From a virus (Duplodnaviria; Heunggongvirae; Uroviricota; Caudoviricetes): a stretch of DNA of 64,000 nucleotides. A program made the position numbers and the translations under genes. Position 1 is the stretch's first letter. Each line of letters begins with the position of its first letter. Where the stretch lies: IMG/VR virus record IMGVR_UViG_3300045988_155334; one strand, 5' to 3'. The notes under the pieces were generated by a model. It was given only the letters and a program-made list of their open reading frames with translations, ran no database searches and was not told the DNA's origin. Below are positions 10,687 through 10,730 of the stretch, piece after piece.

Positions 10687-10730
10687 TCGTAGAATCTGGT
10701 GTGTTAACCGATTCTACGAGTAGTCATTTG
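10687..10730 (-). promoter_or_regulatory. Conserved late-operon motif (CAAATGACTA-N3-GTAGAATC) plus 11-bp inverted repeat in the 5' leader of the sit operon
   Basis: Minus-strand reading cacaaatgactactcgtagaatc; the same 21-mer class recurs at 41412-41432; palindrome ctcgtagaatc...gattctacgag would sequester the GAGG ribosome-binding site. Confidence 0.35.

Follow-up and report, generated by a model that had tools for sequence, protein, structure and literature searches.

A late promoter of a P1-like phage-plasmid lies in one strand of a predicted hairpin that could insulate tail-gene translation from read-through transcription

In bacteriophage T4, the early or long transcripts of genes e, soc, 49 and I-TevI bury the Shine-Dalgarno sequence and AUG in a helix, while the late promoter lies in the DNA that encodes the 5′ strand of this helix, and the late RNAs, which do not contain the strand, are translated (PMC3014915). 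For gene e, the effect on translation is 100-fold (PMC3014915). Phage P1 has 11 late promoters, in which a conserved 9-bp inverted repeat is the site for the late promoter activator Lpa (PMC10695390); this repeat is AAGTnACTT. Here we describe a hairpin predicted at one late promoter, LPsit, in a 64,000-nucleotide stretch of viral DNA (the window), and ask which RNAs could form it and what it might do.

Judged by its sequence, the window belongs to a P1/P7-like temperate phage-plasmid. The surroundings of the hairpin are 99% identical to Escherichia phage vB_EcoM-Ro157c2YLVW, and identity to P7, P1, SJ46, RCS47 and other Punavirus genomes, which starts downstream of 10731-10736, is 95-99.7%. 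The minus-strand genes below 10679 are pmgC (tubA in P7), tub, pmgB and sit (Table 1). On the plus strand are the C4 antisense RNA with its a1/b1 targets and icd/ant (12087-12293, 12559-14561), divergent from the cassette upstream of LPsit; the C4/icd/ant orientation of P1 is presumably unlike this divergent arrangement. A full-length match to the sok antitoxin RNA at 15745-15919 (+; 115 bits) implies an addiction module of the hok/sok type, and three tRNA genes are found at 32081-32231 and 33862-33934 (+).

Table 1. Features of the window at and around LPsit, and other late promoters and genes discussed in the text
Feature	Position	Strand	Remarks
Hairpin 5′ arm (CTCGTAGAATC)	10710-10720	-	Includes the -10 hexamer, 10711-10716
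Hairpin loop (GGTTAACACACCA)	10697-10709	-	Inner GGU:ACC extension
Hairpin 3′ arm (GATTCTACGAG)	10686-10696	-	pmgC 5′ UTR; takes in GAG of the Shine-Dalgarno sequence
-22 box of LPsit (AAATGACTA)	10721-10729	-	Maps to '-22 region of LPsit', AF234172 46618-46626, also in P7
-10 hexamer of LPsit (TAGAAT)	10711-10716	-	Maps to 'minus_10_signal LPsit' of P1 and P7
LP26	41413-41431	-	-22 box 41423-41431, -10 TAGAAT 41413-41418; maps to LP26/LPpmgL annotations, AF234172 78485-78513
LPs (tail-fibre operon)	2451-2471	-	PWM 24.8; sequence same as annotated P1 LPs
LP23 (major capsid gene)	21557-21577	-	PWM 21.8; P1 annotation 'predicted late promoter LP23'
LPpac (packaging genes)	59873-59893	+	PWM 19.0; P1 annotation 'late promoter LPpac'
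Late-promoter-like site (AAGTGACTG-gtga-TAACCT)	39708-39728	-	PWM 19.0, higher than any shuffle; within the beginning of gene 7; unannotated in P1
pmgC (P7: tubA)	10113-10679	-	First gene of the LPsit operon (pmgC-tub-pmgB-sit...); 98-99.5% identical to P1 PmgC and P7 TubA
Shine-Dalgarno sequence of pmgC (GAGG)	10685-10688	-	AUG 5 nt further on; read from the sequence
pmgC start codon (AUG)	10677-10679	-	
Co-oriented gene upstream of pmgC	10738-11214	-	158 aa, PHROG 3429, function unknown
Second co-oriented upstream gene	11266-11940	-	Function unknown
lpa (late promoter activator)	59391-59843	+	PHROG 1704 'Lpa-like transcriptional activator', E = 2e-84; 98% DNA identity to P1/P7 lpa

An earlier note on this DNA had pointed to a 21-bp motif shared by the minus-strand leaders of the sit operon (10710-10730) and the baseplate operon (41412-41432), had suggested that it is a late promoter element with TAGAAT as the -10, and had proposed a genome search for the 21-mer. 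Both copies of the motif, CAAATGACTA-N3-GTAGAATC, are exactly there, reading CAAATGACTACTCGTAGAATC at the first site and CAAATGACTAGCGGTAGAATC at the second. In a search of the 64-kb window they are the sole matches even when up to three mismatches are allowed (0.03 expected), and two matches were reached in none of 100 shuffled sequences. The two copies correspond base for base to the late promoters LPsit and LP26 annotated in P1 (AF234172, AF234173) and P7 (AF503408); in the P1 record 'late promoter LPsit' occupies 46608-46626, and P7 is annotated likewise. The motif is therefore not a new promoter: what the earlier note took for a late promoter element is one, and it is already known from the P1 and P7 records. 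Compared with LPsit and LP26 of P1, which depend on Lpa and SspA, position, -22 box, 4-bp spacer and -10 are all orthologous and the promoters do not differ.

The eight annotated P1 late promoters give the consensus ac-AAGTnACTT-N4-TAnnnT, that is, a 9-bp -22 box followed after 4 bp by a TANNNT -10, a -35 element being absent. The -22 box of LPsit is a degenerate form of AAGTnACTT, matches it at six of the eight specified positions, has the correct 4-bp spacing to the -10 and is presumed to be the Lpa-dependent element. Set against this family box, the 21-mer common to LPsit and LP26 is a mere sub-variant (that of AAATGACTA), and at LPsit it varies, with AAATGACAA or AAATGACAT in many P1-group relatives. 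The LP26 -22 box is shared with the divergent promoter LPpmgL. When the window was scanned with a late-promoter matrix (PWM) built from seven annotated P1 promoters, LPpmgL being left out, six sites beat every shuffle and five of the six are annotated P1 late promoters; LPsit scored 25.0, against 16.5 for the highest shuffle. We also considered an antisense late promoter made from the mirrored TAGAAT on the plus strand (10690-10695) and rejected it, as it has no properly spaced -22 box and a matrix score below 12.

What does not appear in these records is the second feature at LPsit. The earlier note had described an 11-bp inverted repeat pairing 10687-10697 with 10711-10721; the repeat is real and perfect, with 11-nt arms (CTCGTAGAATC and GATTCTACGAG) 13 nt apart, although its true coordinates lie 1 nt lower. 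In the predicted stem, CUC pairs with the GAG of the GAGG Shine-Dalgarno sequence of pmgC. The hairpin RNA has a predicted energy of -20.5 kcal/mol (z = -6.5), and equal stability was reached in 0 of 200 shuffles. The window has 10 perfect inverted repeats whose arms measure at least 11 nt and whose spacers measure 3-20 nt, against 0.36 expected, so that such repeats are generally not chance. The nine others are at 13607-13632, 13986-14011, 21640-21668 (the parS region), 33533-33567, 36606-36632, 45105-45132, 46662-46691, 54410-54434 and 63506-63546; several of these, just past the ends of genes, may be terminators. At the LP26 site there is no comparable inverted repeat. No Rfam 15 family matched 10680-10730 at the gathering score, the six matches in the window falling elsewhere, and we saw the hairpin mentioned neither in the annotations of P1 and P7 nor in the papers that could be searched, although an earlier description may exist.

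If the stem contains part of the promoter, which RNAs can form it? The literature searched yielded no mapped LPsit start site, and we placed the start from the annotation geometry, 6-8 nt past the -10 and 22 nt past the center of the -22 box. By this reckoning transcription would begin at ~10704 (about 10703-10705), within the hairpin loop, and the LPsit mRNA would begin ACACACCAGAUUCUACGAGGUUUCAAUG. The -10 is part of the 5′ arm, which would therefore be positioned ahead of the LPsit start, at about -7 to -17, and be missing from the late mRNA. The suggestion of the earlier note that the palindrome pairs the GAGG ribosome-binding site thus holds in part: the predicted structure does pair GAG, but not in the late operon's own mRNA. 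RNA beginning at 10704 has a predicted energy of -7.4 kcal/mol (z = -0.35) and no significant structure, and on this model the hairpin can form only in RNA begun further upstream.

The two kinds of RNA differ sharply in how accessible the pmgC start region is predicted to be. We calculated an opening cost, the predicted free energy needed to unpair positions -13 to +3 of the start region, which covers the Shine-Dalgarno sequence and AUG. This was 17.1 kcal/mol in RNA reading through from upstream versus 6.8 kcal/mol in the late RNA, a result that was unchanged whether the start was set 6, 7, 8 or 9 nt after the -10. The values for P1 itself were 17.6 and 6.9 kcal/mol, respectively. As a null we used the 61 ORFs of at least 150 aa in the window, each with a pseudo start site at -25. 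Of these 61, pmgC ranked first twice: in read-through opening cost, for which the null has a mean of 7.2 and an sd of 3.2, and in the difference between read-through and late RNA (10.3; null mean 0.8, sd 2.7). The second and third highest read-through-specific occlusion was seen at the gene starts at 63482 (-) and 17288 (-), with differences of 8.7 and 7.2 kcal/mol; as it follows pacB, the first of these two genes is probably c1.

We think it rather probable that the hairpin is an insulator that ties translation of the tail genes to the late promoter and does not regulate the late mRNA. The DNA of the LPsit promoter would double as the template for the 5′ strand of the hairpin, with the 3′ strand supplied by the pmgC leader, including its Shine-Dalgarno sequence. 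Transcripts that come in from accessory or immunity genes of the same orientation upstream would carry both strands and fold, burying the ribosome-binding site of the first tail gene; read-through RNA left untranslated might also be subject to termination by Rho. Once Lpa activates LPsit, RNA would start in the loop, without the 5′ strand, and be freely translated. We infer both the existence of the read-through RNA and the effect on translation. The likely source of such RNA is the pair of genes at 10738-11214 and 11266-11940, for which neither Pfam nor PHROGs gave a function, and a terminator scan found no terminator-like site on the minus strand between the first of these and pmgC. Two other upstream contexts count against the model: in P1, ~160 bp separate simC from LPsit, and the context of locus L037 has an apparent terminator of its own, judged by eye.

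Is the structure kept in relatives? We sought relatives with PmgC and a PmgC profile among genomes, viral contigs, plasmids, phages and metagenomes; about 690 PLSDB plasmid records were matched. Approximately 130 P1-group loci from genomes, viral contigs and metagenomes gave 12 haplotypes of the segment from the -22 box to the AUG, to which the clade of Cronobacter phage JK004 added three, for a total of 15. Within the P1 group the arms are invariant over at least six unrelated upstream contexts, while the loop, the -22 box and the spacer between the Shine-Dalgarno sequence and the AUG vary; as the group is 95-100% identical, invariance within it carries little weight. The sole variant with a broken 3′ arm, GATTCTA-GAGG with a 1-nt deletion and other differences, is L165, a human gut contig with a coverage of 0.9, and is probably an assembly error at this very low coverage.

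More informative are JK004 and similar Salmonella plasmids, whose PmgC is 75% identical. Their sequence reads ACATGACAA-CTCG-TAAAAT-CGG-CTGAAGAT-CCG-ATTTTA-CGAG-GTTGGC-ATG. The -10 has changed from TAGAAT to TAAAAT and the partner C to T, one compensatory change of G:C to A:U, which is a single evolutionary event and a pattern that a palindromic protein site would also give. The JK004 stem is a perfect 13 bp, its loop is unrelated and 1 nt shorter, and additional outer pairs link the -22 box to the AUG. Its predicted opening cost is 19.7 kcal/mol in read-through RNA versus 5.8 kcal/mol in late RNA. Across the 15 haplotypes and 11 positions, pairing is kept in 165 of 165 cells, with ten pairs invariant and one changed on both sides. 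The PmgC-based searches gave no further compensatory events, leaving one in total. Taken together, these comparisons lend weak to moderate support to the structure having been kept.

The same comparisons bear on the strongest of the alternatives, that the repeat has no function. It could be left over from the origin of the promoter, perhaps from an inverted duplication when the immunity/accessory block was inserted between bplB and pmgC, and persist through recent common ancestry. The repeat is confined to two related lineages, there is no variation at most positions of the arms, and a large part of each arm is under constraint anyway: six of the 11 bases of the 5′ arm serve as the -10 and three bases of the 3′ arm as part of the Shine-Dalgarno sequence. 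We nevertheless consider a relic unlikely. The double substitution restores pairing, which by simple combinatorics two random substitutions in the 22 arm positions would do about once in 60 times. The loop, spacer and -22 box have diverged and the arms have not. Moreover, the CTCG and C of the 5′ arm, which are not conserved in other late promoters, are fixed at LPsit.

Could the hairpin instead serve the upstream genes? Similarity among P1-group relatives starts exactly at ACAAATGAC (the junction at 10731-10737), and at least six unrelated sequences are found upstream of it, including simC in P1, upf50.0/50.5 in P7 and the PHROG 3429/3933 pair in the window (loci compared: L001, L002, L005, L016, L037, L045 and L084). 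The junction looks like a recombination hotspot for accessory genes. Since homology begins at ACAAATGAC and the sequences beyond it are unrelated, the hairpin belongs to the pmgC module and not to the upstream genes. This argues against its being a terminator of the upstream cassette or a stabilizer of the 3′ end of its mRNA, with only incidental overlap of the ribosome-binding site. The position would suit such a role, as the stop codon of the gene at 10738-11214 is 7 nt ahead of the LPsit motif and 17 nt ahead of the hairpin, and no other terminator-like site is found there. However, the hairpin travels with the pmgC module while the upstream cassettes are unrelated, it was not called by the terminator scan, its stem is A/U-rich, and there is no conserved U tract, the tail being GUUUCAAUG in the window and GUUGGCAUG in the JK004 clade. 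We give this explanation little chance of being correct.

More distant relatives suggest how the arrangement may have come about. Among the relatives found, a promoter at the pmgC junction is confined to the P1 group and the JK004 clade; in D6 and in Serratia, Pantoea, Erwinia, Vibrio, Photobacterium and soil-metagenome relatives, pmgC directly follows a bplB-like gene and there is no promoter. In P1 the block of immunity, replication and accessory genes presumably sits between bplB and pmgC. LPsit and the hairpin may thus have arisen at a break in the original tail operon, where foreign genes that are expressed in the prophage moved in upstream; in such a setting insulation would be of use. 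In D6 (L092, 1447-1500) and the metagenome loci L153-L158, a GC hairpin, CCCGCC-cttgt-GGCGGG, lies between bplB and pmgC. In D6-type relatives UACAACU at the end of bplB can pair with AGUUGUA beside the pmgC start, a different structure at the same junction.

It is very unlikely, in our judgment, that the repeat acts as DNA, that is, as a palindrome bound by a dimeric repressor or Lpa-associated factor that controls LPsit transcription. Overlap with the -10 and start site is typical of operators, and an operator would likewise show matched changes in both arms. But the two clades have unrelated sequences between the arms, with lengths that differ by 1 bp, and the clade-specific extensions of the helix, which in JK004 reach the AUG, fit RNA rather than an operator. 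The densely annotated P1 record shows no such site here, the repeat is unlike the annotated 17-bp C1 operators, and LP26 has no similar palindrome despite its identical promoter.

There is only a slight chance that the extended, imperfect helix of ~22-24 bp is a site for RNase III or another nuclease that would divide the mRNA of the upstream genes from that of the tail operon. In both clades the helix, if its outer pairs are counted, does extend from the -22 box as far as the AUG; however, its continuous stem of 11-14 bp is short for RNase III, and a nuclease site leaves the placement of the promoter inside the helix unexplained. Least credible is formation of the hairpin in the late LPsit mRNA, throttling or timing sit-operon translation in late infection: the stem is strong and takes in the Shine-Dalgarno sequence, but polymerase starting ~7 nt downstream of the -10 would leave the 5′ arm untranscribed, the unstructured RNA that results has an opening cost ordinary for the window, and the promoter and hairpin of this model both use TAGAAT and therefore cannot both apply to one transcript, unless transcription starts far from the place that the -10 predicts.

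Returning to the insulator, is it peculiar to LPsit? At the other late promoters the difference between read-through and late opening cost is 0-4.5 kcal/mol, and none exceeds the 95th percentile of the null (4.9). Shorter complementarities occur at three of them. At LPdar, which lies outside the window (P1 AF234172 31212-31230), promoter-proximal CCUCCU is complementary to the Shine-Dalgarno sequence AGGAGG. Promoter-proximal bases can also pair with the Shine-Dalgarno sequence of the first gene at LP23 (CUCUUCC/GGAAGAG, window 21505-21577) and at LPpac (CUUUCGU/ACGAAAG, window 59873-59931). The differences at these three are 2.8-4.5 kcal/mol, none individually significant against the null. 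It is tempting, if speculative, to suppose that P1-family phages generally insulate their late operons from prophage or early read-through by placing an Lpa promoter in the 5′ strand of a hairpin, that the arrangement arose at LPsit when bplB and pmgC, once in one tail operon, were split by the immunity/accessory block, and that the weaker complementarity at LPdar, LP23 and LPpac reflects a general principle, convergent with T4; we hold this broader scheme to be doubtful.

If the hairpin does insulate pmgC, a classic model phage would gain a further level of control, in which translation of the late tail genes is coupled to the late promoter. A lysogen could then express accessory genes exchanged into the upstream position and leak no tail proteins, which would help to account for the wide variety of cassettes that the junction accepts. 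The predicted sigma-70 promoters ahead of P1 pmgC (P1-P3pmgC) would be unable to make PmgC efficiently. There would also be a practical consequence, as late promoters are reused in phagemid and packaging systems based on P1, and these would behave differently with or without ~11 bp of leader.

How does the locus compare with known devices? Like a Rho-independent terminator, the LPsit hairpin is a stable stem-loop just past a stop codon; unlike one, it has no U tract, its stem is A/U-rich and it overlaps the promoter and ribosome-binding site of the next gene. In the transposons IS10 and IS50, fold-back inhibition reportedly guards transposase translation from outside promoters. Read-in transcripts carry an upstream complement of the ribosome-binding site, and the transcript from the element's own promoter does not. 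LPsit differs in that it serves a phage late operon. As in T4 gene e, the -10 of LPsit lies inside the 5′ arm and the start would fall in the loop. The T4 cases were shown by experiment, whereas the LPsit hairpin is known from its sequence and predicted folding. LPsit is used by the sigma-70 holoenzyme with Lpa and SspA, whereas T4 uses gp55/gp33 with TATAAATA. In contrast to T4, this phage is temperate, so that most of the read-through in need of silencing would stem from early genes or genes expressed in the prophage. The phage families and the genes are unrelated, and the likeness is one of mechanism, not homology. The hairpin is probably a further instance, in a well-studied phage, of a design already known and, if it works as proposed, would be a second, independent case of the design of T4 gene e.
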